A stretch of 64,000 nucleotides of DNA from Cenarchaeum sp. (GCA_963692915.1 OY843584.1:800001-864000); one strand, 5' to 3'. Positions 4,277 through 63,425 are shown, counted from the stretch's first letter. Made by a program: numbers and translations. The notes: generated from the sequence alone by a model not told the origin.

Positions 4277-4398
4277 CCACGGCTCAGTAACCCCACGGCT
4301 CAGTAACCCCACGGCTCAGTAACCCCACGGCTCAGTAACCCCACGGCTCAGTAACCCCACGGCTCAGTAACCCCACGGCTCAGTAACCCCACGGCTCA
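4277..4398. repeat. perfect 16-bp tandem repeat (CCACGGCTCAGTAACC), 7 full copies + 10 nt
   Basis: Read directly from the sequence; no spacers. Confidence 0.97.
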
Positions 4399-4457
4399 CG
4401 ACCCGGACGCACTACCCACGCTAGGTATTTATCAAAACGCTGCGGCACGCACGCCAG

Positions 4458-5480
4458 ATGGCAAAGATCTCCGACCAGGACGCGCTCATACTAGACGAGC
4501 TCCAGCAGTCGTTTCCGCTCGTGAGCAGGCCGTTCGCTGACATCGCCTCAAGGCTCGGAATGCCCGAGGACGAGGTCATCGAGCGCACTCGCGCGCTCAG
4601 GGAGTCTGGCGTCCTGCGGCAGCTCAGCGCGATATTTGACACCAGGAGGCTCGGCTACAAGAGCTCACTAGTCGCAATGCGCGTGAGCCCCGAGAACATC
4701 GAGCGCGTTGCCGGCATAATCAACGGCCACCCCGGCGTGAGCCACAACTATGAGCGCGACGGCAAGTACAACCTGTGGTTCACCATAGCGGTTCCGCCGG
4801 GCTCCAACCTAAAGGACGAGCTCGCAAAGTTTGACGGCATTGGCGGAATCGAGGCGGTTCGCATGCTCCCGACGATAAAGCTCTTCAAGATCGGCGTGCG
4901 CCTAGAGATGGTCAAAAAGTCCGACGTAAAGCCCGCCGAGACGAAAACCGACGCCCCGCGCGAGGCGTTTGTGCCAACAGAGCGTGACCGCGAGATCATA
5001 CGCGAGACGCAAAAGGATCTCGACTTGTCGGCGCGGCCATTTGAGGCGCCTGCGCGCAGGCTCGGGATGGACGAGGATGGCATGTTTGCGGCCCTGCGCC
5101 ACTACCAGGAGATCGGCGTCATGCGCAGGTTTGCCGGCATACTGCGCCACCGCGACGCCGGCTTTGTTGCAAACGGCATGATAGTCTGGAAGGTGCCCGA
5201 GGGGAGGATAGAGGAGGTCGGCGCGACGCTCGGCGCGTTCCCGCAGGTGAGCCACTGCTACCAGCGCCCGACATATGACGACTGGCCGTACAACGTCTTT
5301 TCGATGATTCACTGCAAGACCAGGGAGGAGGCCGACGCGATGGTGGGGCAGATACGCGAGCAGATAGGCGTAGAGGAGTATCGCGTGCTCTTTAGCCTGC
5401 GCGAGTTCAAAAAGACGCGCGTAGAGTATTTTGTCGAGCAAAAGTTTAGCGTCGCGCAGGCCGCCGCGACTGTCGCGTAG
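4458..5480 (+). CDS. ahbAB: siroheme decarboxylase, fused AhbA/AhbB (Lrp/AsnC-like, NirDL/GH)
   Basis: Two Lrp-like halves with VSHNYER..YNLWFT and VSHCYQRP...WPYNVFSMIH; near hemA/sirC. Confidence 0.85.
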   Translation: MAKISDQDALILDELQQSFPLVSRPFADIASRLGMPEDEVIERTRALRESGVLRQLSAIFDTRRLGYKSSLVAMRVSPENIERVAGIINGHPGVSHNYERDGKYNLWFTIAVPPGSNLKDELAKFDGIGGIEAVRMLPTIKLFKIGVRLEMVKKSDVKPAETKTDAPREAFVPTERDREIIRETQKDLDLSARPFEAPARRLGMDEDGMFAALRHYQEIGVMRRFAGILRHRDAGFVANGMIVWKVPEGRIEEVGATLGAFPQVSHCYQRPTYDDWPYNVFSMIHCKTREEADAMVGQIREQIGVEEYRVLFSLREFKKTRVEYFVEQKFSVAQAAATVA

Positions 5481-9251: not shown

Positions 9252-9841
9252 TTCATGCCCTCCACGATGCGCACAAAGTTTGCTAGTATGCGCTCGCCCT
9301 CGGCAGTCATTATCGACTCGGGGTGGAACTGGACGCCAAATATCGGCAGTGTCTTGTGGCGAACAGCCATGACCTCGCCGTCATCATCGGCGACGGCAGT
9401 CACCTCGAGTGAGTCGGGGATGGTCGTCGACTCGCCGACGAGTGAGTGGTACCTCGTTGCGCGAAACGGGCTGCCAACGCCCTCAAAGAGCGCGTCTCCG
9501 GTGTGGCTCACGGGACTAGTCTTGCCGTGGCGCACGTTTGCCGCATTGGTCACGCGGCCGCCAAACGAGCTGATGATCCCCTGGTGGCCAAGGCACACGC
9601 CTAGGAGCGGCGTGCGCCCGCCTAGCTCCTCTATGGCCTGGCGCGAGACTCCAAAGTCGCGCGCGCTCTCTGGCGTGCCGGGTCCGGGCGATATGACTAT
9701 CGCATCGTATGCGCGACGCGCAATCTCGCCTGCGTCGATCGCGTCATTCCTGATGACGTCAGTCTCGACTCCGAGGCGGCCCAGGGCCTGCGCGATATTG
9801 TAGACGAACGAGTCATAGTTGTCTATTATGAGGAACCTCAT
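9248..9841 (-). CDS. trpG: anthranilate synthase glutamine amidotransferase component II
   Basis: IDNYDSF, SPGPG, GVCLGHQ, QFHPES. Confidence 0.95.
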   Translation of the reverse strand: MRFLIIDNYDSFVYNIAQALGRLGVETDVIRNDAIDAGEIARRAYDAIVISPGPGTPESARDFGVSRQAIEELGGRTPLLGVCLGHQGIISSFGGRVTNAANVRHGKTSPVSHTGDALFEGVGSPFRATRYHSLVGESTTIPDSLEVTAVADDDGEVMAVRHKTLPIFGVQFHPESIMTAEGERILANFVRIVEGMK

Positions 9842-29091: not shown

Positions 29092-29634
29092 GTGTTGCCA
29101 TCCATAAAGACGCTAAGCGACGTCAAGAACGAGTTTCTTGCTAGGCGCGAGCTCGTGTGCGACTTTGAGGACGCCTCTGGCAGGATAAAGAGGGCAGAGG
29201 CGATCGAGGCAGTCTCCAAGGAGCACGGCCTAGACGGCAAGCTCGTCATACCGGTCAGGCTGCAAAACCACGTGGGCCGGACACACACGACAGGGACGTT
29301 CTTTGTGTACGATGACGAGACTGTCGCAAAGGCCCACATCGACCACTCCATCATGGAGCGGATTGAAAAGTCAAAGGCCGCCGGCAAGGGAGCAGCAGAC
29401 GATCAGGGCGACGGCAAGGCCGACGCGTCAGGCGGTGAAGAAAAGCCCGAGGCAGCAGAGAGCGCCGGCAAGGGAGCTGCAGACGATCAGGGCGACGCCA
29501 AGGCCGACGCGTCAGGCGGTGAAGAAAAGCCCGAGGCAGCAGAGAGCTCCGGCAAGGGAGCTGCAGACGATCAGGGCGACGCCAAGGCCGACGCGTCAGG
29601 CGGTGAAGAAAAGCCCAAAGGGGACGGCGAGTGA
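29092..29634 (+). CDS. rps24e: 30S ribosomal protein S24e with repetitive acidic tail
   Basis: N.FL.RRE motif; adjacent to rps27ae. Confidence 0.85.
29380..29616 (+). repeat. 84-bp (28-aa) in-frame tandem repeat, about 2.8 copies
   Basis: [11 protein letters not shown][GA][16 protein letters not shown] units start at 29380, 29464, 29548. Confidence 0.95.
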
Positions 29635-40910: not shown

Positions 40911-41303
40911 CTACATGGGCAGGAAGGGCAGGACAAACAGAGAGAGCGCAACCATGGCTCCCGCACCGGCAAGCACAAGTCCGGACAGGAGGCTCAGCTG
41001 TGCCATGTGCGCCCTGGCCCCAATCCTGGCCATGTCCTGCTCGCGGCTGGACAGCGCCAGAAAACATGACCTGATTAGCATCACGTATCTCTTGTGATCT
41101 GACATTTTTATCAGTGTGTCTAGCATACCGTCATCCACCTTGCCGCCTTTTACCAAGTTTTCAGACGATATGGGCTGGTATATGTATGACACAGATAGCG
41201 CCCGTGCAGAAAAGATCATCGATATCATCGCCCCTGCAAGTCCGGCCATGCCGAGCATTATTGTGGCCGCTATTGCCTGAACTGGCAGCATTTGAGGATC
41301 AAC
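40911..41303 (-). pseudogene. 5'-deleted, frameshifted paralog of membrane protein 20019-20594
   Basis: QAI.ATMILGMAGLAGAMISMIFS...GAMVALS shared; the conserved GGAGGCGCATAGTTG start is now out of frame and about 60 codons are missing. Confidence 0.65.
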
Positions 41304-41338
41304 TATGCGCCTCCGTGATGTCACTTGTGGGTATTGCC

Positions 41339-41443
41339 TCAAACGGCGCGCACATAGCCGCCAATCTCCAAGAGCTCTGGCTTTTTCTTTCTCTCCTTTG
41401 GCTCGGCTGCCTTGGCCTTACCATCAGACTTGTCCTTGCTCAT
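41339..41443 (-). CDS. 34-aa peptide, paralog of 19878-19982
   Basis: MSKDKSDGKAKAAEPKERKKKPELLEIGGYVRAV; TATA atatttataa upstream. Confidence 0.6.
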   Translation of the reverse strand: MSKDKSDGKAKAAEPKERKKKPELLEIGGYVRAV

Positions 41444-41677
41444 CAGATGGCCGGAGACTCGCCGTCGTTATAAATATTCCAAAGTCATGCGCGAATGAGG
41501 TCAGCACCTCTCCGCCCATTTGGACAAATGGGCGCGATCTCGCCCAATCCATTTACCGCTGCGGCGCCTGCCTGGGCATGAGCGGTGGCGGTGCTGAGCT
41601 CGTAATGTGCCAGTGCCGGCAAGGCGTAGACAGCAATGCTGGTGCCACGCGTGGCGAGGTTAGCCCTCGTCATCTGA

Positions 41678-42016
41678 CATGTAGGGATAGAGCCTGGCGA
41701 ACTCGAGCTCGGCGGCGGGGCGCCCCACGTTGCCGGGATCGGGCGCGAGGAGCGCCTGAGCAACCGCGGCGAGTGGCTGCGGGACAGCGGCTACGGCCGG
41801 AGTCCGTCAGGAGAGACGGCGTTCTCCACGATCAAGCTGGTGTTCCGCGACCACGTGAGGGCGCTGAACTGGGGCCAGGTGGTCCGCGAGGTGGCATTCA
41901 TGGCGTACGCGTACAACCGGCTGATCGACATGGCGGGCGGTCCGGGGTGAGCCGCGGGGGGCGCGGCCTGGGGCGCCATGCGTGGCACGCGCGGTCACCG
42001 GTTATGAAACAACGCC
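41678..42016 (+). mobile_element. IS5-family (IS903-like) transposase C-terminal remnant with right terminal repeat
   Basis: Frame ending 41950: EWLRDSGYGRSPSGETAFSTIKLVFRDHVRALNW..VREV...YN (Y..R...E..FS..K-type DDE C-terminus); 42002-42016 reverse-complements to GGCGTTGTTTCATAA, resembling IS903-type ends. Confidence 0.7.
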
Positions 42017-42097
42017 GTACACGATACCCTGCCATACCACCTTGAGGCATAAGAAACCTCATGGCATCATGGAACAGGCCAGTCATGCGCGTTCCCG

Positions 42098-43078
42098 TCA
42101 CCCAACCCTGCGTATTCTCTCAGAGCGCTGACCGGGAATGTCAATCACGTACCTTCCGGCGCCGAGCTGCTCAAACCACTCATAGAGAACCTGCACGTTT
42201 CCCGTGAGATCCCGCCGGCTAGGAACCGGCACGTCAGTGCAGTTGTCCTGTATCCACTCCTTTACACGTCCAAAATACGTCTCTGGGTCTATGAATGAGT
42301 CCATCTTTTGCACAAACGGGTGCGCAAAGAATCGTGATGCCAGCTGTGCGCGAAACTCTGCCTCTGACAGGCCCCGCTCTATCCCATAGTTTGCCAGGTC
42401 ATGAAACACACAGGCGGCTATCTCGTCGTTATCAGACGGTTCTAGTCCCTGCTCCATCCTAGTGTATCCGGACACGAGGTCATCAACTATTTCAGTCATC
42501 GGCAGTGCCGATATCAGAAACTTGTCCGGCTGTACACTCACAAGCGAGTCAAGCTCATCCTCTGTCTTTGGTGGCTGCGGCTGTTGCTTGACCCATTTAG
42601 AAAGAGTGCCATACATGTCATCGTCCACAAGCCGTGACTCGCAACGTATGCGCTCAAAGTACACACGGTCATCCGGTGACGCCTCTTTTACAAGCACGCC
42701 CATCTCATGGTTGCCGCCCTTGTGCATTCCCCTGTGCGACATGTTTCCCGTGCAGAGCACATAGTGGCGCAGTCCGGCCGAGACCACCTTTAGGTGGATT
42801 TTAGAGTTCACGTAGAGCCTGATGTCCTGCTCCTTGCAGTACGGGTACAGGGACAGCTCGGATGAGCCTGACACGAGATCCCTAGTGTCCCACGTCGTGA
42901 TGATCACCACCTTGGAGTCGATGCCGTCTAGGAGCTCCCTGAGCACGTCTGTCCGGATATAGGGGACGATGATGTGGATCGTCTCGCCGCTGCGCGAGTG
43001 CTCCTCGATATAGGCCCTGACGGGCGCATAGAGGGGGCTCTGAAACGTGGGCTGCTCGTCGGCCAATCCGGCGCGCAC
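42098..43078 (-). CDS. phospholipase D-family (HKD-type) putative nuclease
   Basis: PYI..., IHLK....(x)TGNMSHRG....NHE resembles the HxK...GSxN...N.E motif; start uncertain. Confidence 0.7.
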   Translation of the reverse strand: MRAGLADEQPTFQSPLYAPVRAYIEEHSRSGETIHIIVPYIRTDVLRELLDGIDSKVVIITTWDTRDLVSGSSELSLYPYCKEQDIRLYVNSKIHLKVVSAGLRHYVLCTGNMSHRGMHKGGNHEMGVLVKEASPDDRVYFERIRCESRLVDDDMYGTLSKWVKQQPQPPKTEDELDSLVSVQPDKFLISALPMTEIVDDLVSGYTRMEQGLEPSDNDEIAACVFHDLANYGIERGLSEAEFRAQLASRFFAHPFVQKMDSFIDPETYFGRVKEWIQDNCTDVPVPSRRDLTGNVQVLYEWFEQLGAGRYVIDIPGQRSERIRRVG

Positions 43079-43376
43079 GCGCGGGGTTCCCGTATATCAC
43101 TGGGCGGACGGCAGGCGACCCTTTTCCATGGTGTCTGCAGGCGATCAGGCCACATGGCCTGTTTTGCCCCAAATCTGCCCCAATATCCTAGACCATGATG
43201 AGGCGCGTTCCTAGCGGCAGTCCTGAGCGGTTCGACAAGACCTCAAGACAGACCTTCAGGCACGACGCAAGGAAATCAGGTTAAAGAGCACCAGCCGCAG
43301 GTTAACTGTGGCTCAACCCAAATTAATTTAAACTCCCAACACCTCGCCGGGGCATGGCAAGGCCGGAGTTGATCGC

Positions 43377-44232
43377 ATGACGCGTCACGTGTGTGGCATA
43401 TCAGGCGGCAAGGACTCTAGCGCTCTGGCCGTCTACATGAGGGACAAGGTTCCGGACATGGAGTATTTCTTTTGTGACACTGGGGCAGAGCTGCCCGAGA
43501 CATATGCATACATCTCAAAGCTAGAGGTCGTCCTGGGCAAAAAGATCGCACGCCTCAACTCTAGTCGTGGGTTTGACCACTATTTCGAGGTCTTCAAGGG
43601 GTGCCTGCCGTCCCCGCAGATGAGATGGTGCACAAAGCTCCTAAAGATAAAGCCGCTAGAGGAGTGGCTCGGCGATGACGAGTCCGTGTCATATGTCGCA
43701 ATACGCGCTGATGAAAAGAACCGCAAGGGGCACGTCTCATCACGCCCAAACATAACAACACAGTACCCGTTCATTGACGATGACATTGACCTCGAGGGCG
43801 TAAACCGCATACTTGACGAGGCAGGCATTGGCCTGCCCGACTATTACAAGTGGCGCACGCGCTCTGGATGCTACTTTTGCTTTTTCCAGCGAAAGGCCGA
43901 GTGGGTTGGTCTTGCCCAAAACCACCCAGAACTCTTCAAGCAGGCCGTCGCCATCGAGAACAAGGTCCTAAAGGACGCCGGGGCCGGCGGTGACGCGTCA
44001 TTTGCGGATCACGCAATGGAGGGCAGGCAGTACACGTGGTCACAGGGCGAGACGCTCATACAGCTAGTTGGCCGAAAGGACCAAATCCTCGCAAGGCATA
44101 AAATGGCAATAGAGAGAGAGAGAGAGAGAGAGAGCTAATTCGCGCCTAAAAAACCTTCCGCTTGTTGACGTTTTAGCCGGGGCACTAGACGAAGAGGAGG
44201 ACACAAAGGCGTGTACCATGTGCCATTTGTGA
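43377..44232 (+). CDS. sspD: PAPS-reductase family SspD/DndC-like protein, frameshifted at (AG)12 (current frame stops at 44138)
   Basis: ISGGKDS, DTG.ELPETY, RWCT..LK, RSGCYFCF; +1 frame continues ANSRLKNLPLVDVLAGALDEEEDTKACTMCHL to TGA 44232. Confidence 0.8.
44111..44134. repeat. (AG)12 dinucleotide microsatellite within CDS
   Basis: Read directly from the sequence. Confidence 0.97.
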
Positions 44233-44241
44233 GGGAATGCC

Positions 44242-45852
44242 ATGAACTTTGAGAATATCTTTGCGAGAATCAGTCCAGAAACACTCTGTAATGACTTTCT
44301 TGGAAAAATAACTGTCCAACTTTTAGAAGCGAGAGAGCCAGACATACTCCAAAGAGCCGGCAAGCTGCATAAAGCAACATTAGAGTTAATCACACCATAT
44401 GAAATGCTAACAAACAAAAAGCTACGAAAGAAGATAACCAGTGTGTTGCTGAAAACTGATGCGGAAAAACTAGCACATAGCTTAAACATAAAAATTCAAG
44501 ACGTGTACAAAGACCTTGAACGTACGCAGATTAACAAAGGGACAAAATCAGAAGAGAGCCTATTAAGATTTTTTGAAATAGACATACCAGAGATAGAGAC
44601 TGTTGCAACACGCCCTGATTCTGAAAAGATTGAACCAAGTGTGGGATTATTTGAACATCAACGCCAAGTGGTTAGAGATGCCATGCAAAATCTAGAGTCC
44701 GAACCGCACAGAACTATAATTCACATGCCCACCGGTGCCGGTAAAACGAGAATAGCAATGAGGATCATAACACACCACTTGCTCAAAAATGAACCAGTAT
44801 TTGTTATATGGTTAGCATATAGCGAAGAATTGTGTGAACAGGCGATAGATGAATTTAACAAAAATTGGAGATCTGTAGGCAACAGAATTGTTAACGTGCA
44901 TAGATTTTTCGGGAAATATACCATGAAATTAACAGATAAAACACCATATGACGGGTTGCTTGTTGCTAGCTTGAGCAAAATGTACAAGGCAGACACTAAA
45001 GCTGATAATGACGTATTTTTGTCAAAATTAGCAGACAAGGCCACGCTGGTTGTCATGGATGAAGCTCACCAAGCAGTTGCAGAAACATATAGTTATGTTC
45101 TAGAACAGCTAGTAGAAAAACACGATGGTCGGTTATTGGTAGGATTGACAGCAACGCCCGGACGTACATGGAATGATCCAAGTGTTGACAAAAAACTGTC
45201 AGATTTTTTTGGGCACAAAAAAGCCACACTAAATAAGAAAAATCCCATAGAGTTTTTAATCAATGAAGGATATTTAGCAGATACAAAAATTGAATCTTTG
45301 GATTACGATAAAATAGACTACACCAACAAAGAAAAGAGTGACATCATGTCAGATCTAGACATTCCAAAATATATATTAGAAAAGCTAGCAAAAGATGTGC
45401 AACGCAGTTTGATCATTTTACAAAAAATTCGAGAGCTTATCAGAGAAGGCCACTTAAGAATAATTATTTTTGCGTCAACTGTGGAACATGCGAAAGCACT
45501 AACCATTGCATTAAAAACAAAAAAGATCAACGCACAGTGCATAACATCAGAAACGCCATCAGCTATACGCAACATAGAAATCAACAAATTCAAAGAAAAT
45601 AGCAATAAACCTATGGTGTTATGTAATTACGGGGTATTGACAACAGGGTTTGATGCACCAAAAACATCAGCAGCCATCATCGCGCGTCCAACAAAATCAT
45701 TAGTCTTGTACAGTCAAATGGCCGGAAGAGCAATGCGCGGGCCAAAAGCTGGCGGAAATAAAAAGGCCAAGATAATAAGCGTGGTAGACAGCAATTTGCC
45801 AGGGTTTGATGATTTTGGAAAGGCATTTCTAAACTGGGAGGACATATGGTAA
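44242..45852 (+). CDS. SF2 DEAH-box helicase (Res/YejH-like), AT-rich
   Basis: HQ, MPTGAGKT, MDEAH, TATP, LTTGFDAP, QMAGRAMR. Confidence 0.9.
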   Translation: MNFENIFARISPETLCNDFLGKITVQLLEAREPDILQRAGKLHKATLELITPYEMLTNKKLRKKITSVLLKTDAEKLAHSLNIKIQDVYKDLERTQINKGTKSEESLLRFFEIDIPEIETVATRPDSEKIEPSVGLFEHQRQVVRDAMQNLESEPHRTIIHMPTGAGKTRIAMRIITHHLLKNEPVFVIWLAYSEELCEQAIDEFNKNWRSVGNRIVNVHRFFGKYTMKLTDKTPYDGLLVASLSKMYKADTKADNDVFLSKLADKATLVVMDEAHQAVAETYSYVLEQLVEKHDGRLLVGLTATPGRTWNDPSVDKKLSDFFGHKKATLNKKNPIEFLINEGYLADTKIESLDYDKIDYTNKEKSDIMSDLDIPKYILEKLAKDVQRSLIILQKIRELIREGHLRIIIFASTVEHAKALTIALKTKKINAQCITSETPSAIRNIEINKFKENSNKPMVLCNYGVLTTGFDAPKTSAAIIARPTKSLVLYSQMAGRAMRGPKAGGNKKAKIISVVDSNLPGFDDFGKAFLNWEDIW

Positions 45853-47609
45853 TGACTCAAAGAAGAAAACCAATGATACCACACAGAAAAGCAATGACGG
45901 CGTTACGTGACATAGGATATAAAAATACCACGTATGCCATTGCAGAATTAATCGATAATTCAATCCAAGCAGGCGCAAAAAATATTGAGCTGCTTTGCTG
46001 TGATCGAGTGATACCCGTCAACAAACGAGAACGAAGGACAATACACCAGATTGCCGTTGCTGATGATGGCTGTGGCATGAACGAACAAGTACTAGAAAAC
46101 TCATTGCAATATGGAAATGGCACAAGATTAGAAGATCGTAGTGGTATTGGCAGGTGGGGCGTAGGGCTACTAAATTCTTCAATATCACAGGGCAAATTAG
46201 TGGAAGTGTACACATGGAAAGACGGCAATGATCCACTATATTCATATGCTGCAGTTGAAGATGATGAGGAAGATGTACCAGTTCCCAAACAAAGTGAGAT
46301 TGATAAACGTTGGAAGAAGTTTTCTGAATGTGTAAAACGACCATCTGGTACATTGGTTGTATGGTCACAGCTCGACAGATGTAGATGGAGAAAATCTAAA
46401 ACAATAATTGATAGATCAGAGCACACAATTGGAAGAATATATAGAAATCTCATTGCGGCGAAAAAAATAAACATTAGTGCAATTTCGTTCACCGATGAAT
46501 TAGAAGAGTATGAAAAACGAGATATAATTATCAATGATCCATGTTATCTCAAAGTCCCTTCATCAACTCCAAAACCATACGACAAAGAAGCCATGTTTGT
46601 GCCAGACGGAGACGGCGATCTAATTGAAACAGTAACTAAAGATGAACAGGAGCATCAGATCAGGGTCAAGTTTTCTCTAGCAAAAGCAAAAGCACGTAGC
46701 GGAATCAAAAAGGTAGACGGTGGTGATGAAGAGTGGGGGCGTCACGCTGCAAATAATGTGGGAATTTCTTTAATGCGAAGTGAACGAGAGTTAGAATTGA
46801 CAACTGCTCTTAACACAAATGATACAAGAGAGCGATGGTGGGGAGTTGAAGTATCATTTTCCCCAACATTGGATGAAATGTTTGGGGTCACAAACAATAA
46901 ACAGAGCGCAACAAATTTTGTAGAATTAGCGACAGCAGTACGGGCAAAAAAACGTTCAAGCAAGGAAGAGGAAGAAGATAGTGATGATAAAGAATTGTTA
47001 CGAATTATTGAAAAAATACAAAAAAGATTAAATCTGATTCGTAAAAAAATACATAACCAAAAAATAGATGCTAGATCAAAAGACCGATATGTGAAAATAT
47101 CCGAGGACATAGGCACTGACGCCATAAAGAAACGTCAAATGGATGAACATGTGGGAGCGAGTGACAAAGGCGAAGAAGGCACCCCAGAAGAACGTGTTGC
47201 CGGACTAACCAAAGCCTTAGAAGAACAGATGTCAAAAGAAGAAGCAGCTGTTGAGGCCAAAAACATAATTTCAAAAAATTCAAAATGTAAGATCATGCCA
47301 AGTCCACTTTCTGGATCTATGTTATTTGACATACAAAGAAGTAATGGAGTATTAATTGTAAAAATAAATCAAAATCATCCAGCATACAATAATTTAATTG
47401 AAGTCGTAAGAGATGTCCCTGACAGCACTAATGACATAGAAGAATTAAAAAGTAGGCTTCAAAGAGCCAATAATGGACTAGAGCTGCTGTTGCTATCATG
47501 GTCCAGATTTGAAGATGAAGAGACGGATATGGACAAACTTCGAGAAATGCAAGATATTAGAATGGAGTGGGGAAAATTTATTGCTGAATTTTTGGAGCAA
47601 AACAAGTAG
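45846..47609 (+). CDS. MORC-like GHKL ATPase, AT-rich
   Basis: GY......AELIDNSIQA, DDGCGM, GRWGVGL, SGTLVVW GHKL motifs; coiled-coil C-terminus. Confidence 0.85.
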   Translation: MVMTQRRKPMIPHRKAMTALRDIGYKNTTYAIAELIDNSIQAGAKNIELLCCDRVIPVNKRERRTIHQIAVADDGCGMNEQVLENSLQYGNGTRLEDRSGIGRWGVGLLNSSISQGKLVEVYTWKDGNDPLYSYAAVEDDEEDVPVPKQSEIDKRWKKFSECVKRPSGTLVVWSQLDRCRWRKSKTIIDRSEHTIGRIYRNLIAAKKINISAISFTDELEEYEKRDIIINDPCYLKVPSSTPKPYDKEAMFVPDGDGDLIETVTKDEQEHQIRVKFSLAKAKARSGIKKVDGGDEEWGRHAANNVGISLMRSERELELTTALNTNDTRERWWGVEVSFSPTLDEMFGVTNNKQSATNFVELATAVRAKKRSSKEEEEDSDDKELLRIIEKIQKRLNLIRKKIHNQKIDARSKDRYVKISEDIGTDAIKKRQMDEHVGASDKGEEGTPEERVAGLTKALEEQMSKEEAAVEAKNIISKNSKCKIMPSPLSGSMLFDIQRSNGVLIVKINQNHPAYNNLIEVVRDVPDSTNDIEELKSRLQRANNGLELLLLSWSRFEDEETDMDKLREMQDIRMEWGKFIAEFLEQNK

Positions 47610-47611
47610 AC

Positions 47612-48880
47612 ATGAAAAACCCAAACACAGCATCGATCACCTACCTAGACTACAACTCCACAACTCCCATGGATGACAGAATTATCAAAGAGTTGAACCC
47701 CCTGTTTAGCACATGGTTTGGCAACCCCTCAAGCGAACACCATGGCTATGGCAGGGATGCCGAGGCCAGAGTAGAGCACGCAAGAGCGCAGGTCGCAGAG
47801 CTTGCCGGAATGCATCCCCCCGATGTCATATTCACGTCGGGCGCAACAGAGGCAAACAACCTGGCGCTGCGCGGCATCGCAGAGGGCGCATGCAGGAGGG
47901 TGAGCGTGCTGGTGGGCGCGACAGAGCACAAGTCCGTGCTAGAGGCCGCCGACAGGCTAGGCGAGCTTGGACTCGCCACAGTATCCAGGGTTCCCGTCAA
48001 GCAGGACGGCACGATCAGCGCAGACACGCTGAAAGGCGCCATATCCGACAATGGTGCCGACATTGTCTCGATCATGGCGGCCAACAGCGAGACTGGCGTC
48101 ATTCACCCCACCGCAGAGCTCGCCGAGGTGACCCACACGGCAGGCGCCCTGTTCCACTGTGACGCGACGCAGGCGCTCGGGCGCGTGCCCTTTGATGCCA
48201 CAAGCCTCAGAGTCGACATGGTCTCAATGAGCGGCCACAAGATGTACGGGCCAAAGGGCACGGGTGCGCTCGTGGCCAGCAGGGACACCCGCAGGAGGCT
48301 AAAGGCGATCATCTGCGGCGGCGGGCAGGAGGGCGGCCTGCGCAGCGGAACGCTCAACGTGGCAGGCATTGTCGGGCTCGGCAGGGCGTGTGAGATCGCC
48401 TCAGGCGAGGGCATTGCCGACGGCTCCCGCCAGGCGGCCCTAAGGGACAGACTGGAGAGCCGGCTCGCATCACGGCTGGCCGGCGTGAGCGTGAACGGCC
48501 GGGGTGCGCCGCGCCTCCCAAACACGTCGAGTGTCAGGTTTGAGGGCGCCTCGGCATACGAGACTATCGCAAACGCGCCTGCACTAGCAGTGTCATCCGG
48601 CAGCGCGTGCTCGGCATCAACGATAGGGCCCTCACACGTCCTGGTCGCCATGGGCATGAGCCATGATGCGGCCGACGAGTCCGTCAGGTTCTCCATCGGG
48701 CGCCCCACAACAGAGGGCGACATTGACATTGCGACAGACTGCATTGTTGCTGCGGTGAGTCGAGTGAGGGATTTGACAATGGCGCACACGGCCAAAAATG
48801 TGCGCACAGGAGACATGATGGCCACCACGGGACACGGGCACAGTCACGCAAGCACTGGGGGAATTGCGCATGCGAGTTGA
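47612..48880 (+). CDS. sspA: cysteine desulfurase (SspA/DndA/IscS-like)
   Basis: YLDYNSTTP, FTSGATEANN, SGHKMYGPKG, SSGSACS. Confidence 0.88.
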   Translation: MKNPNTASITYLDYNSTTPMDDRIIKELNPLFSTWFGNPSSEHHGYGRDAEARVEHARAQVAELAGMHPPDVIFTSGATEANNLALRGIAEGACRRVSVLVGATEHKSVLEAADRLGELGLATVSRVPVKQDGTISADTLKGAISDNGADIVSIMAANSETGVIHPTAELAEVTHTAGALFHCDATQALGRVPFDATSLRVDMVSMSGHKMYGPKGTGALVASRDTRRRLKAIICGGGQEGGLRSGTLNVAGIVGLGRACEIASGEGIADGSRQAALRDRLESRLASRLAGVSVNGRGAPRLPNTSSVRFEGASAYETIANAPALAVSSGSACSASTIGPSHVLVAMGMSHDAADESVRFSIGRPTTEGDIDIATDCIVAAVSRVRDLTMAHTAKNVRTGDMMATTGHGHSHASTGGIAHAS

Positions 48881-49868
48881 GCAGGCGGTTCCAAGCCCCG
48901 GATTTGCGAGGCATGAGACATTCCATCTCCGGTTTGGCTGGCTCAAAAAATGCCATGACGCAGTGAAAAAGGACGCGCGCGTGTTTCAGCGCGAGGACGC
49001 GCTAGTCAGGCTCGGCGTGGGCAAGAACATGGTCAGGTCGATTCGCTTTTGGGGAATTGCCACAAAGGTGATCAGGCAGACAGTGGAGCCTGGAGAGTCA
49101 GGCAGGCGCGGCGGCCAAGAGGTCGAGGTCACCGACATGGGAAGGCGCATATTTGACGAGCGCCACGGATGGGATCCCTACCTAGAGAGGCCAGAGACGC
49201 TCTGGCTGCTCCATTGGCGCCTATATGCCCCACCCTCGTCGATCCCCGCGTGGTGGATACTCTTGAACGACCTCAACGCAGTCAGGATAAGGGCAGACGA
49301 GCTTTCAAGGCACGTGCTAGGCAAGGTGAGCATGGTCTCGACATGGGCAATTCCCAACGAGAGCTCGATCAAAAAGGACACCGACGTGTTTGTCCACACG
49401 TACGCCTCTAGGAGGGGGCATGTCGGTGACATTGAGGACTATATGGACTGCCCATTTAGGGCGCTGCGCATTCTGCGAGCCGACGCCTCGGCAAAGTCTG
49501 GCCTGCAGTTCGCCATTGGGAAAAAGCCCGGCATGAGCGCCGGCATTGTCGCCCACATATGCCTGGACTTTATGGCAAGGCGCGGGACGGGAGCGCGCAC
49601 GGTCTCGATAGGCTCCCTGGCCGGCGAGCCCGGCGGGCCGGGGCATGTCCTAAAGGTTGGCGAGGCCGAACTTGCCGAGCTCCTAGCAGAGGCCGCCGAG
49701 GAGCACGGCGGGATCATTGGCGTGCGTGATGTCAATGGCATGGCACACCTCTCGTTTCCAAAAAATGTCGGCGATGCCGCAGTCGAGATCCTGGATCGCA
49801 TGTACGCGCAAGACGGGCACAGGGCCAAAAGGCCGCGCGCGCTGGCCACGGCGAGGGGAAAGAGATGA
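48870..49868 (+). CDS. sspB: DUF4007 protein (SspB-like nickase)
   Basis: FARHETF.LR.GWLKK, LGVGKNMVRSIRFW, DPYLE...TLWLLHW. Confidence 0.85.
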   Translation: MRVEQAVPSPGFARHETFHLRFGWLKKCHDAVKKDARVFQREDALVRLGVGKNMVRSIRFWGIATKVIRQTVEPGESGRRGGQEVEVTDMGRRIFDERHGWDPYLERPETLWLLHWRLYAPPSSIPAWWILLNDLNAVRIRADELSRHVLGKVSMVSTWAIPNESSIKKDTDVFVHTYASRRGHVGDIEDYMDCPFRALRILRADASAKSGLQFAIGKKPGMSAGIVAHICLDFMARRGTGARTVSIGSLAGEPGGPGHVLKVGEAELAELLAEAAEEHGGIIGVRDVNGMAHLSFPKNVGDAAVEILDRMYAQDGHRAKRPRALATARGKR

Positions 49869-52800
49869 GGCGCAAGAGGGTCGCCAAGGCCACAAGACCA
49901 GTCAAGTCCACCAGATCAGCAAAGAGCGCCACAGTGCGCACAGAGCCGCTCTCAAGGCTCGTCACGCCGATAGAGTCGTTCATGCGCTCGACGAACGTAG
50001 AGAGGGACACGGCAGGGGCCGGATCACTTGGCACATACATCGCAAACGCCTCGGCCCTGGACACGGTGCAGAGGCTTGCTGACTCGATGGCAGGCGGCGG
50101 GAGGGCATTCTCGATAACTGGCCCGTACGGATCGGGCAAGTCGACCCTGGCCGTCTTCCTCGGGGGTCTCCTCGGGCCGTCATCAGACGCTGACTGGAAG
50201 TACGCGCACCGCCTCCTCCACGGAATTGCGCCAGACATGGCACGAAATGTCACTGACGGGCGCAAGGGGCTTGGGGCCCACAGGGGCGGCTTTGCCAGGT
50301 GTACAGTCGTGGCCGGAAAGGAGCCGATATCGGCGACCATAATACGCGCACTCGACAAGGGGGCAAGGGACAGGTTTGGAACGAGATATTCGGCAAGGGA
50401 CTTTGCCACTGCAGGGCAACTGCGCCGCCTGTACGGCGAGATTCGGCAGGCCAGCGGGGCTGCAGCGCACGGCGCGTCGCACACTGGGGCAATAATGGAG
50501 ATTGTTCGCGGAATGTGCTCCAGGGTGCCAGTTGTCATTCTAGTCGACGAGTTTGGCAAGAACCTGGAATATTTGGCAGAGGGCGGCGCAGGCGACGGTG
50601 ACGTGTTCTCCCTCCAGTCAATGGCCGAGGCCGGCACTGGCCCCGGCGCACTGCCGCTGTTTGTCGTGACGATGCAGCACATGTCATTTGAAGAGTATGG
50701 GACCAGGATGTCAGGCGCGCACCGCAGGGAGTGGGCAAAGGTCCAGGGAAGGTTTGAGGACATTCCGTTTGAAAACTCGGCCGAGCAGACAAGGCTCCTG
50801 GTCTCCAGGTCACTCTGCGCACGAGGAGGCGCATCGGGAAGAAAGGCGGTGGACTCGTGGTCAGCAGCGCACATGGCCAGCCTCACAAGGCTGGGCCTGG
50901 CAGACGGCCTGGGCAATGGACTTCTTGCCTCGTGCTATCCGCTCAATCCGCTTGCGCTCCTGGTCCTGCCAGAGCTGTGCGCCAGGTATGGCCAGTACGA
51001 GAGAACGCTCGTCTCCTTTGTGGCCGGAGCCGGCAGGGATGCCGTGCCGGCGTTCATCGACAGGAGCAGGTGGTCTGCCGGTGCGCTCCCGTCCATGGAC
51101 GTCGAGTCGCTGTACGACTATTTTGTCTCTAGCCACCAGTCAGCCGGCTCGGCGTCAGCTGCAAACGTGACGCGCCTAATGGAGATCACGACTGTGATAC
51201 GCGACTCGCACGGCCTCTCAAGGGCGGCGATAAAGGCCCTCAAGACCATAGGCGTCCTAAACCTCGTCTCGACGTCAGGATCCCTGCGCGCCTCCAGGGA
51301 CGTCATGCGCTATGCGGTGGGCCCGGAGGCCGAGGCGGCCCTCGAGGAGCTCGAGGAAAAGTCGATCATCACGCACAGGGCGTATGCTGACGAGTACCGC
51401 GTGTGGCGCGGCACGGACGTGGACATACAGGCGCACACTGAGATTCTGCGCGCAAAGTATGCCGACATGCCCCTGGCCCGCACGCTGGCCATCGTGTCCC
51501 CACTGGAGCCAATGATGGCAGCCAGGCACGGGATAAAGACGGGCACGATGAGAATGTTTGGGCGCAGGTTCCTCGGTGACGGCATCGACGAGGCCGCATC
51601 AGGGCAGGATCACGACGGAGTCATCATGTACATGACAGACCAGTTCGCTAGCCTGCCGCCAGTCAGCGCAGGTGCGCTGCCCACCATAGTGGTGAGGCCC
51701 ACGGTGGACATGGAGGACGTCCGGAGTGTTGCGCTGGAGACGGCCGCAATAAGGGAGATGCTAGAGACTGATGATGCCATAAAGGGAGACTGGGTCGCAC
51801 GCCGAGAGCTCTGGGACCGCATGGTCCACGGGATCACCGGCATAGAGACGGGGCTTGAGCGCGCGTATGGCGATGACGCAGAGTGGTGGCTAGTTAATGT
51901 CGGGGCAAGGCCGCGTCGACTTGACAAAAGCGGCGGGGTTGCCGTGTCAGCAGCAGCCGACATTGCGTATCCAAAGACGCCACATGCGCACAACGAGATG
52001 GTGAACCGGACAAGGCTCTCAACGCAGGCCTCGCGCGCAAGGCTCACCCTGATCAACGCGATGGTCATGCGCCACGGCGAGGAGAGCCTCGGGATGACCG
52101 GATGGGGGCCAGAGCGCGCAATGTACGAGTCGGTCCTCAAGAGGACAGGCATGCACGCACGCAGCGGCAGGTCATGGGGCATAGCCAGGCCGCGCTCCGG
52201 ACTGTGCGCGGCATGGGATTTGGTCATGTCCTCGATAGCGCGATCGAGGCGGCACCGCGTGAACGTAAGCGAGGTCTACTCTGCGCTAAAGGCGCCCCCC
52301 ATAGGCGCAAAGGCCGGCATAATGCCGATCCTCCTAGTCGCAGCACTGCTCACAAAGCGCGATGACGTTGCGCTCTATGAGCACGGGACGTACAAGCCGA
52401 CGATGGCACCAGAGGTGATCGAGCGCCTCCTAAAGAATCCCGGCCATTTTGAGATAAAGCACCTCGCAAGCCGAACGGGGCACAAGGCCAAGGCGATCAG
52501 GGGCGTCGCGGCGGCACTAGGGGCAAACGCGAGCCTCCTAGGCGTGATAGGCGAGCTGGTAAAGGCCGCATCCAGGCTGCCCGCATACACCAGGGTGACA
52601 AAGACCATGGGGAGGCACGACACGGCAGTCAGGGACGCGATACTAAGATCGACAGAGCCAGACGTAATGCTCTTTGAGGCACTGCCGCGCGCGCTGGGAG
52701 TCGACCTGTCATCAAGCCAGTTTGGCACCAGGCTGGCAAAGTCAGTCAAGGCGCTAGAAAAGTTTCATCCGGACATGCTCGATGCCCTGCGCGCCGCTCT

Positions 52801-53314
52801 GCTAAAGGCCACGCGCGTAAATGACCGCAAGCGCCTGGCCACCATTGCAGTGTCGCTCTCCGAGAGGGCGACAGGTGCGGATTCCGGAATGCGCGGGTTT
52901 CTGAACGCCATTGCCACCAGTGCCCTTGATGACGATGAGTGGATAGGGTATGTGGCAATGGTCCTGACAGAAAAGCCAGTTGCTGACTGGACTGACGAGA
53001 CTAGAAGGGTGTTTGACACAAACCTCAAAGATCTGGCCAGCAGGTTTCTTCGTCTCATGGCACTAAACTTTGACGAGTCCGCAAGGCACCTTAGCGCATC
53101 ACCGCCACCGTACAGGATCACGGTTACAAACAGGGACGGGACAGAGAGCATTAACGTGGCCATTGCAGGTGGCGGCAAGGACAAGATGGCAGACAGGGTG
53201 GTCGACGAAATGGTCAGCATTATGGACAAAAAGGGCATGGCTCGCCAGGACGTGATCCTGGCACTAATGGCATCACTTAGCAAGAGGCTGCAGGACAAAA
53301 AGTCCAGTGGATAG
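49865..53314 (+). CDS. sspC: large P-loop ATPase (SspC-like)
   Basis: ITGPYGSGKS Walker A, LVDEFGK Walker B, EWAKVQGRF, YPL.P; coupled to DUF4007. Confidence 0.8.
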   Translation: MRRKRVAKATRPVKSTRSAKSATVRTEPLSRLVTPIESFMRSTNVERDTAGAGSLGTYIANASALDTVQRLADSMAGGGRAFSITGPYGSGKSTLAVFLGGLLGPSSDADWKYAHRLLHGIAPDMARNVTDGRKGLGAHRGGFARCTVVAGKEPISATIIRALDKGARDRFGTRYSARDFATAGQLRRLYGEIRQASGAAAHGASHTGAIMEIVRGMCSRVPVVILVDEFGKNLEYLAEGGAGDGDVFSLQSMAEAGTGPGALPLFVVTMQHMSFEEYGTRMSGAHRREWAKVQGRFEDIPFENSAEQTRLLVSRSLCARGGASGRKAVDSWSAAHMASLTRLGLADGLGNGLLASCYPLNPLALLVLPELCARYGQYERTLVSFVAGAGRDAVPAFIDRSRWSAGALPSMDVESLYDYFVSSHQSAGSASAANVTRLMEITTVIRDSHGLSRAAIKALKTIGVLNLVSTSGSLRASRDVMRYAVGPEAEAALEELEEKSIITHRAYADEYRVWRGTDVDIQAHTEILRAKYADMPLARTLAIVSPLEPMMAARHGIKTGTMRMFGRRFLGDGIDEAASGQDHDGVIMYMTDQFASLPPVSAGALPTIVVRPTVDMEDVRSVALETAAIREMLETDDAIKGDWVARRELWDRMVHGITGIETGLERAYGDDAEWWLVNVGARPRRLDKSGGVAVSAAADIAYPKTPHAHNEMVNRTRLSTQASRARLTLINAMVMRHGEESLGMTGWGPERAMYESVLKRTGMHARSGRSWGIARPRSGLCAAWDLVMSSIARSRRHRVNVSEVYSALKAPPIGAKAGIMPILLVAALLTKRDDVALYEHGTYKPTMAPEVIERLLKNPGHFEIKHLASRTGHKAKAIRGVAAALGANASLLGVIGELVKAASRLPAYTRVTKTMGRHDTAVRDAILRSTEPDVMLFEALPRALGVDLSSSQFGTRLAKSVKALEKFHPDMLDALRAALLKATRVNDRKRLATIAVSLSERATGADSGMRGFLNAIATSALDDDEWIGYVAMVLTEKPVADWTDETRRVFDTNLKDLASRFLRLMALNFDESARHLSASPPPYRITVTNRDGTESINVAIAGGGKDKMADRVVDEMVSIMDKKGMARQDVILALMASLSKRLQDKKSSG

Positions 53315-63002: not shown

Positions 63003-63425
63003 ATGGCTACCAAGAGAAAAGCAGTCTCTAGGAAACGCACCTCAACGAAGAGAAGGACTACTAGGAAGACGACAAGGAAGACAACTAGGAAAACGACTAG
63101 GAAGACAACTAGGAAAACGACAAGAAAGACGACAAGAAGGAAGACCACGACGAAGAGGACCGCTACCAAGAGGCGTACAACACGACGCAAGACAGCTGCA
63201 AAGGCAAAGCCCACAAGGAGGCGCAGACGAAAGTCGGCAACTTCGGCAAAGCCCAAGCGCACAGTCAGGAGGCGCAGACGAAAGTCGGCAACTTCGGCAA
63301 AGCCCAAGCGCACGGTGAAGAGGCGTAGACGAAAGTCAACGACCGCAAAGCCCGCAACGCGCAGGCGTCGTCGTACGACCAAGACTGCTGCAGCCCCAAA
63401 GAAACGCAGGCGAAGACGCGCATAG
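63003..63425 (+). CDS. extremely basic Arg/Thr/Lys-rich protamine/H1-like protein
   Basis: (TTRK)n and RRRRRKSATSAKPK repeats with synonymous codon variation; AT-rich upstream region and downstream terminator. Confidence 0.75.
   Translation: MATKRKAVSRKRTSTKRRTTRKTTRKTTRKTTRKTTRKTTRKTTRRKTTTKRTATKRRTTRRKTAAKAKPTRRRRRKSATSAKPKRTVRRRRRKSATSAKPKRTVKRRRRKSTTAKPATRRRRRTTKTAAAPKKRRRRRA

Follow-up and report, generated by a model that had tools for sequence, protein, structure and literature searches.

An AG repeat in sspD as a candidate phase-variable switch of DNA phosphorothioation in an archaeon

Introduction

Why does a DNA phosphorothioation gene stop directly behind a simple repeat, with its remaining codons lying intact in the neighbouring frame? 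The question is raised by sspD in a 64,000-nucleotide stretch of DNA from Cenarchaeum sp. (GCA_963692915.1, OY843584.1:800001-864000), referred to here as the window, with positions counted from its first letter. The gene contains a perfect run of 12 AG dinucleotides, (AG)12, and its conserved C-terminal tail is encoded out of frame behind this run. An earlier reading of the same DNA, made from the sequence alone (the sequence-only reading), had proposed that slippage in the tract makes the gene a phase-variable switch. Our computational analysis supports this proposal in that the tail is conserved in homologues and the tract length varies among relatives. We show by sequence comparison that the length of the AG run decides whether the last ~30 residues of SspD are present, and that natural relatives hold both kinds of allele.

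Results

An AG tract separates two reading frames of sspD

The sspD frame of the window (P0001) ends with ...KMAIERERERES followed by TAA. The +1 frame, read from position 44134, gives ANSRLKNLPLVDVLAGALDEEEDTKACTMCHL, 32 residues that end in CTMCHL before a TGA, and exactly 9 nt separate this TGA from the ATG of the downstream helicase gene (Table 1). By arithmetic on the window sequence, 10 or 13 AG units would join both frames, and proteins matching the predicted 10-unit and 13-unit read-outs do exist (P0002 and P0123). The sequence-only reading had described the tract, the stop at 44138, the tail to 44232, the 9-nt gap and the fusion of the frames at 10 or 13 units, and all of this is borne out by the window sequence and its translations.

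We found with Tandem Repeats Finder that (AG)12 is the sole dinucleotide array in the window, in agreement with the claim that no other long run of this kind is present. Genome-wide (1,644,826 bases in one contig, 59.4% G+C), the second-longest AG, GA, CT or TC run has 4 units, and a first-order Markov model predicts 1.5e-8 12-unit AG runs per genome. Because of this expectation and the shortness of the next run, the tract is no chance feature, and it is unique in the genome. It is a perfect 12-unit repeat placed such that changes in its length alter the reading frame, as in a contingency locus. An antisense open reading frame at 44064-44489 has no Pfam match and was taken as spurious.

The displaced tail belongs to SspD

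The window reading frame matches the PADLOC SspD profile with an expectation value (E) of 7.3e-102 over profile positions 1-242 of 277, and in-frame close relatives span positions 1-276. As assembled, the window gene therefore falls short of the full-length profile, and the lacking part is encoded in the +1 frame. From these two observations, the gene is, at the level of sequence, an sspD gene carrying a frameshift. It is the only sspD in the genome. The protein also matches Pfam PAPS_reduct (E 5e-11) and carries CGISGGKDS at residues 6-14, a stretch that is invariant across 53 aligned sequences and contains the PP-loop motif SGGxDS (here SGGKDS). Among solved structures there is a single distant match, to 21fy chain C (named PptA; E 3.6e-8), over residues 16-197.

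To place the tail, we scored 7648 relatives in a collection of 5.8 billion proteins and counted lengths and endings in the best 120. These proteins have 275-307 residues and end in CxxCxx without exception (120/120), most commonly as CTVCHL, CTMCHL or CVVCAL, and thus do not stop where the window frame does. The 53-sequence alignment has invariant cysteines at C6, C33, C85, C165, C168, C280 and C283, and the window tail in the +1 frame is 90% identical to residues 245-283 of P0002 (E 4.9e-17). Searched alone against PADLOC, the 32-residue tail gave no match, the query being too short. In the window sspD, the terminal CxxC is encoded, yet out of frame. The C-terminal tail is, on this alignment evidence, a genuine feature of the family; because the CxxC ending is family-wide, the end of the SspD profile is left uncovered and the +1 frame matches P0002, the frameshift removes a conserved part of the enzyme. 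The proposal that the acidic tail with CxxCH is a real C-terminus thus holds for the 120 best relatives and for C280 and C283, but its motif is better written as CxxC[H/A/S][L/I/V]. An AlphaFold2 model of the in-frame protein P0123 has a mean predicted local distance difference test score (pLDDT) of 76 and falls below 50 at residues 262-285, and the tail is predicted to be flexible.

Close relatives differ in tract length

The 90%-identity protein cluster of the window SspD has 33 members, of which 16 were seen: three without the repeat, reading ..MERTKKKQKNLPL or ..MERSKGKRKNLPL, and 13 with an ER repeat, 12 of them complete and one cut at a contig end. For these relatives, we deduced the tract length from the protein end, assuming that the flanking DNA is the same as in the window. 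The 12 complete tract-bearing proteins show only the three endings that the three frames of the window DNA predict. The in-frame ending is ..(ER)n ANSQLKNLPL...CTMCHL, and the out-of-frame endings are ..ES stop and ..ELIRN or ..ELIRA stop. In these terms, 10 units (P0002) and 13 units (P0123) are in frame, and the out-of-frame lengths are 9 (P0135), 11 (P0128, P0130 and P0132), 12 (the window protein P0001, P0124, P0126 and P0134) and 14 units (P0127 and P0133).

Several of these lengths occur on the same protein. P0002, P0123, P0124 and P0127 share an identical 245-residue core with n = 10, 13, 12 and 14, respectively, and P0128 (n = 11) and P0135 (n = 9) are each one residue away from that core, such that one near-identical SspD backbone carries six deduced tract lengths, from 9 to 14 units. 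P0126 and P0132 have a common core with 12 and 11 units, and P0001 (12 units) and P0133 (14 units) are 3 residues apart. Four backbones, 9-27 residues apart from one another, have all retained a perfect tract. The 12-unit read-out of the window (..ERERERES stop) recurs on three other backbones, those of P0124, P0126 and P0134, which are found on 5, 2 and 1 contigs. Near-identical strains therefore differ in length, as deduced from their proteins, and include lengths that would be ON and lengths that would be OFF, the polymorphism expected of a contingency locus. Invariance of the tract, which would have spoken against a switch, is refuted by the deduced lengths, which span 9-14 within the 90%-identity cluster and take in the in-frame values 10 and 13. 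Because n = 10 and n = 13 are common to one core and both intermediate lengths are observed, the simplest account of these sequences would be that the tract has moved through OFF lengths and returned to frame.

We also looked for the tract in DNA. A metagenome search with six AG units plus 9 flanking bases returned 0 matches, a search from which records very near the window were possibly excluded. A protein-guided metagenome scan with P0002 found 80 loci, none above 70% identity (one partial match reached 76%), and yielded no DNA of a tract-bearing relative. Nine sequencing runs were found and four were examined, with 44100-44142 masked as repeat in the read comparison. Two of the four, X1 and X5, come from different studies; in both, contigs break off 31 letters past 44099 and resume 28 letters before 44143. 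In a third run (X6), the stretch from 44042 to 44193 is bare of contigs. The contig ends in X1 and X5 would fit a branch between a 10-unit and a longer allele in an assembly graph of 31-mers, presuming that these contigs were built with a word size of 31 letters, and we do not count them as evidence.

The repeat is young and sspD appears to be under selection

In the representative genome of the same genus, sspD has no repeat (GCAATGGAGCGCTCCAAGGGAAAAAGG...), and the window is 16 nt longer at that place. For this reason, the AG repeat is, on present alignments, a recent gain by one sub-lineage. It lies in a lysine- and arginine-rich linker whose sequence varies freely across the family. We compared the six tract-bearing backbones and found 32 variable sites. 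All of them miss the 105 columns that show no variation in 51 homologues without the tract, whereas 13.7 would be expected there (hypergeometric P 3e-9, a rough value because kin are not independent). Of the 145 columns with at least 90% conservation, only 2 coincide with one of the 32 sites. Because substitutions in the tract-bearing lineages avoid all 105 invariant columns, sspD has evolved as a working enzyme under purifying selection since it gained the tract; the direction of this signal is clear. Consistent with a gene that is kept functional, the tail and the operon are also intact.

We scanned 102 SspD loci (718 kb) for further repeats. In a g16 genome (G016), a (GA)6 run lies inside sspD, where it is read ERER (L017:1795-1806). 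In the related genus g2, one genome (G052) carries a G13 run (L009:2397-2409) ~60 nt ahead of the GTG start of sspD and ~32 nt ahead of the TATA-like TTTATTAA. Given these two cases, repeats are, as far as the scanned sequences go, associated with sspD more than once within the family, the G13 run being a second, independent repeat at an sspD operon. Elsewhere in the family, the sspD of G083 (L018, L023) is in two pieces ~1.6 kb apart, as if split by an insertion.

The Ssp operon and a candidate restriction module

The gene order in the window is sspD-helicase-GHKL-sspA-sspB-sspC, with sspA, sspB and sspC adjacent and each matching its PADLOC profile nearly end to end. SspA, SspB, SspC, the helicase and the GHKL ATPase are all full length. 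By its gene content, the cluster is a predicted SspABCD system for single-strand DNA phosphorothioation. The usual order in related loci is sspA-B-C-D. A homologue of the helicase lies directly downstream of sspD in at least 12 of 102 related loci, a lower bound because many of these loci are cut short, often together with a GHKL gene and, in L078, with a gene for a PLD-like protein. PLD homologues adjoin the helicase-GHKL pair in L078 and L115, and the helicase/GHKL(-PLD) arrangement recurs in L025, L026, L031, L032, L078 and L115. No protein of the window cluster matched the PADLOC profiles of SspE, SspF, SspG or SspH. From this absence and the recurrence at sspD, we propose the helicase-GHKL(-PLD) set as a candidate, as yet unnamed restriction partner of Ssp systems; the PLD-like gene, divergent from sspD in the window, possibly belongs to the module.

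Table 1. Features of the sspD locus and G/C runs at other genes of the genome. Positions are those of the window unless a locus (L) or genome (G000) is named.
Feature	Position	Strand	Evidence or remark
PLD-like protein, divergent from sspD	42098-43078	-	weak Pfam PLDc_2 and PADLOC DrmC matches
sspD 5' reading frame as assembled (P0001, 253 aa, putative OFF allele)	43377-44138	+	translation; PADLOC SspD; Pfam PAPS_reduct
(AG)12 simple sequence repeat	44111-44134	+	read (ER)n in sspD frame; proposed slippage site
Displaced +1-frame SspD tail: NLPL helix, acidic linker, CTMCHL	44134-44232	+	translation, no internal stop
Premature TAA stop set by 12-unit length	44136-44138	+	translation
TGA stop of displaced SspD tail	44230-44232	+	translation
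ResIII/DEAD-type helicase, 536 aa	44242-45852	+	Pfam ResIII 9e-24, Helicase_C; weak PbeA match 2e-27
GHKL-type ATPase, 587 aa, overlaps helicase stop	45846-47609	+	Pfam HATPase_c_3 1e-19; MzaB-like 8e-17
sspA, cysteine desulfurase	47612-48880	+	PADLOC SspA 8e-128, profile 1-374/374
sspB (DUF4007)	48864-49868	+	PADLOC SspB 1e-87; Pfam DUF4007 1.5e-77
sspC, large ATPase, 1149 aa, intact	49865-53314	+	PADLOC SspC 8e-283, profile 1-1103/1104
C26 run	L105:3082-3107 (G000 280081-280106)		directly after ATG ATG of 863-aa Type III methylase frame, PADLOC MTase_III 1.2e-119
C11 run	L110:2808-2818 and L111:1308-1318 (11-base runs)		one placed like C26, at second methylase frame, 852 aa
11- and 12-base runs	12-base run L112:722-733		at two further N6_N4 methylase genes; frame change at run in latter gene
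C15 run	L106:3092-3106		in frame, middle of 1123-aa HKD-Snf2 nuclease-helicase
G10 run	L124:5678-5687 (G000 1309677-1309686)		5-13 codons into dndB
Runs near giant frames	L107:5453-5471; L109:734-750; L108:5851-5869 and 9658-9673; G000 656965-656981		

Long repeats elsewhere in the genome

The genome holds 15 G/C runs of at least 10 bases (10-26), against 1.7 expected, and 6 of the 15 lie in or at DNA-modification or restriction genes (Table 1). At their current run lengths, the two large methylases (863 and 852 residues) have starts that are out of frame with the body of the gene, and the four repeat-bearing N6_N4 methylase genes are, by the placement of their runs, candidate archaeal phasevarions. 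We searched same-genus genomes for an ortholog of the C26 methylase and found the flanking gene alone conserved, with no tract to compare. At the nuclease-helicase gene that holds the C15 run, a G21 run (L106:1140-1160) lies ~490 nt upstream, flanked by a TATA-like box and by the ATG start of a small reading frame on the minus strand. The G10 run lies in the first gene of an intact dndBCDEA cluster (L124:5640-11687) with a GmrSD-like neighbour, a second phosphorothioation system in the genome. Of the five members of the dndB protein cluster, three begin ahead of the G run (363 residues) and two begin at M47 (317 residues), one of the latter on a 79-kb contig. These differences hint at length variation in dndB too, although differences between gene callers could also explain them.

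Four of the 15 runs, 17-19 bases long, precede giant frames of 2962 to 25,698 codons. With a 16-base run included, the runs ahead of these frames (3062, 2962, 5233 and 25,698 codons) measure 16-19 bases (Table 1). Ig-like domains of the Big_5 or CopC type were found in each of the three giant frames that were scanned, and a signal peptide in two of them. Two of the runs stop ~30 nt short of a TATA-like box downstream, and two pairs of these runs have near-identical flanks. The remaining 5 of the 15 runs were assigned to neither of these groups. Across 201 genomes of the family, G/C runs of at least 14 bases occur in 28, concentrated in g1 (4/4), g2 (4/5), g14 (4/5) and g18 (5/10). SspD was found in 17 of the 201, counting only matches of at least 69% identity, and the genera rich in G/C runs overlap those that hold SspD.

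Repeats are unstable in Campylobacter and Helicobacter through lack of mismatch repair. We detected no MutS_V, MutL_C or NucS_C domain in this 99.86%-complete single-contig genome, and the same domains were detected in control genomes.

Additional repeats were observed away from these gene classes. A perfect 16-nt tandem repeat of 7.6 copies (CCACGGCTCAGTAACC; window 4277-4398) precedes an AsnC/NirDL-like regulator gene (4425-5480), its end being 27 nt upstream of the gene; the unit length is not divisible by three. The 7-nt unit CTCCGAG is repeated 17 times at L114:945-1069 (G000 895444-895568), inside a 129-residue frame without a Pfam match, and an 8-nt unit is repeated five times at G000 87668-87709. 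The window also contains an 84-nt repeat of 2.8 copies with 98% identity (29379-29616) and, near its end, 12/24-nt and 51-nt repeats (63056-63353).

Discussion

A model for switching

The reading that we favour, and consider probable though well short of certain, is that (AG)n is a slippage-driven ON/OFF switch of Ssp phosphorothioation that stands at OFF in this assembly. Slipped-strand mispairing at replication would add or remove AG units. Tracts of 10 or 13 units (n = 1 mod 3) would yield full-length SspD of 283 or 285 residues, with a flexible arm made up of the NLPL helix, the acidic linker and the invariant CxxC, whereas other lengths would bring a stop 1 or 5 codons past the repeat, and the C-terminal arm would be lost. 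The window length of 12 would be an OFF state. SspD without its tail would be unable to make phosphorothioate; the CxxC arm would act as the acceptor or relay of sulfur from SspA, swinging to bring persulfide sulfur to the activated DNA phosphate. We infer the inactivity of the tail-less protein and the swinging arm by analogy, because SspD is described as a PP-loop ATP pyrophosphatase that pulls down with SspA and is the proposed sulfur acceptor (PMC7188994, partial text), because the most C-terminal cysteine of sulfonucleotide reductases is an essential nucleophile (PMC1175818, partial text), and because the tail is predicted to be flexible.

Switching would be frequent and bidirectional. 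A high rate of change in the AG run by slipped-strand mispairing would be favoured by the absence of detectable MutS, MutL and NucS domains. As the genome has an intact dndBCDEA cluster at another place, only the Ssp layer would be subject to the switch, and cells with an OFF allele would lack Ssp-type phosphorothioate while Dnd-type marks persist. Such a switch would be a form of bet-hedging for a modification-based defence, comparable to phase-variable Type III mod genes. Its effect on defence would depend on the type of the partner effector: with an SspE-like effector, which is stimulated by phosphorothioate, the OFF state would be harmless, and with an SspFGH-like effector it would be toxic (PMC8092258, partial text).

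Several points weigh against this model. Ten of the 12 complete distinct alleles are out of frame, which also fits decay of the gene, and the unit counts of the relatives come from protein ends, with flanking DNA assumed to be the same. In the four of nine runs examined, no contig spans 44100-44142, and the sole run with raw reads (X7) amounts to one read. In contingency loci, repeats are mostly found near the 5' end. The AG repeat lies at ~87% of the length of sspD, an unusually late position, and truncated SspD might keep some activity. AlphaFold2 leaves the CxxC tail unplaced, and in the literature searched we found no test of the role of this tail in any SspD. Finally, if the helicase-GHKL module attacks unmodified DNA, the OFF state could be harmful.

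Alternative explanations

The AG run might instead be a non-adaptive hotspot: a chance expansion in a tolerant linker that frameshifts sspD at random while the Ssp system is being lost, with the different lengths reflecting neutral drift. The preponderance of out-of-frame alleles among the cluster members seen would follow from this, the second, intact dndBCDEA system could make Ssp dispensable, and the sspD of G083, split by ~1.6 kb, indicates that ssp genes do get lost in the family. A decaying gene, however, would hardly have accepted 32 substitutions that avoid all 105 invariant columns (with the rough P of 3e-9), nor would its displaced tail and the five other genes of its operon be expected to stay intact. 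A perfect tract persists in four backbones separated by 9-27 residues, two in-frame lengths occur on one core with their intermediates observed, and the genes in which long repeats are concentrated here are of just those classes known for phase variation in bacteria. We therefore regard decay as unlikely, although it deserves serious consideration.

Alternatively, the frameshift could be an error of assembly or consensus, the true tract having 10 or 13 units and sspD being intact. The single 1.64-Mb contig fits a long-read assembly, as we judge it to be, in which repeat lengths can be miscalled, and the runs examined offer zero tract-spanning contigs and a single raw read with which to check it. 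By contrast, the same 12-unit read-out appears on three other backbones from other sources (P0124, P0126 and P0134), and read-outs of 9, 11 and 14 units exist too; errors of whole AG units across independent assemblies are improbable, and such an error is a very unlikely explanation. It is also conceivable that the frameshift is real and is bypassed, with RNA-polymerase slippage or ribosomal frameshifting restoring some full-length SspD and the tract length tuning the dose. The tail frame remains open, as recoding would require, and long repeats can provoke transcriptional slippage, which is established for homopolymers; to our knowledge, it is not established for dinucleotide runs. We found no Rfam element in window positions 41000-47000, and by inspection AGC-TAA is not a known +1 shift site, such that the hallmarks of programmed frameshifting are absent here and recoding has very little probability.

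Relation to known systems

The nearest parallel to the proposed switch is that of the phase-variable Type III mod genes of Haemophilus, Neisseria and Helicobacter, in which a perfect repeat likewise lies in the coding region of a modification enzyme, frameshifts give ON and OFF states, and several lengths are found among near-identical strains (mechanism as summarised in PMC6435447, partial text). The two cases are further alike in that other repeat-bearing modification genes are present and mismatch repair is undetected. They differ in the mark, which for sspD is a backbone phosphorothioate and not a methyl group, in the archaeal host and in the AG unit; additionally, the sspD repeat lies near the 3' end, where it would cost only a ~30-residue tail. 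Phase variation by a repeat in the modification gene of a defence system that marks host DNA has a further precedent in the Pgl/BREX gene pglX of Streptomyces coelicolor, although the gene family, the mark and the domain of the host are all different from those of sspD.

Compared with the SspABCD-SspE and SspABCD-SspFGH systems of Vibrio and E. coli, the window system has the same four modification genes, with end-to-end PADLOC matches save for the shifted SspD tail. It departs from them in its gene order, sspD standing first and sspA-sspB-sspC last, and in having helicase-GHKL(-PLD) in place of SspE, SspF, SspG or SspH. With the sulfonucleotide (APS/PAPS) reductases, SspD shares the PAPS_reduct fold and a cysteine at the extreme C terminus, which in those enzymes is essential and sits on a mobile tail (PMC1175818, partial text). 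SspD differs in having a CxxC pair after an acidic linker and in acting on DNA together with a cysteine desulfurase.

We consider it possible, though not the likelier outcome, that the lineage runs a repeat-based contingency repertoire across many loci, of a kind usually associated with bacterial pathogens. It would comprise sspD, dndB, Type III and other methylases, the nuclease-helicase and, for the giant surface proteins, their promoters. In that event, without detectable MutS, MutL or NucS repair, cells would randomly reshuffle their epigenetic self-marks and their surface. The poly-G repertoires of Campylobacter and Helicobacter are similar in having many long G/C runs in restriction-modification genes and at surface-protein genes and no MutS/MutL detected (general picture of multi-locus contingency in PMC11868660, partial text). 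By contrast, the present case concerns an archaeon, many of its runs lie ~30 nt upstream of the TATA-like boxes of giant genes and not inside genes, and variation in the runs is limited to the hint at dndB.

Significance

According to a 2018 review of phosphorothioation, neither dnd genes nor their promoters had been seen to carry simple sequence repeats, and any phase variation of phosphorothioation would then need another mechanism (PMC6435447). A 2025 review of phase variation asks whether multi-locus phase-variable genomes are restricted to pathogens and lists archaeal surveys as future work (PMC11868660). We found no description of a repeat switch in a phosphorothioation gene in the literature searched on the topic, the supplements of which could hold gene tables.

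If the proposed switch is real, sspD would be the first case of repeat-driven ON/OFF control of DNA phosphorothioation and among the first documented phase-variable genes of archaea. Within populations, phosphorothioation is known to be incomplete and heterogeneous, and the repeats at sspD and dndB in one genome would offer a concrete, testable genetic cause of this heterogeneity from cell to cell. Together with the related genera, among the 28 of 201 family genomes that hold G/C runs of at least 14 bases, the window genome would then be an archaeal case of multi-locus phase variation.

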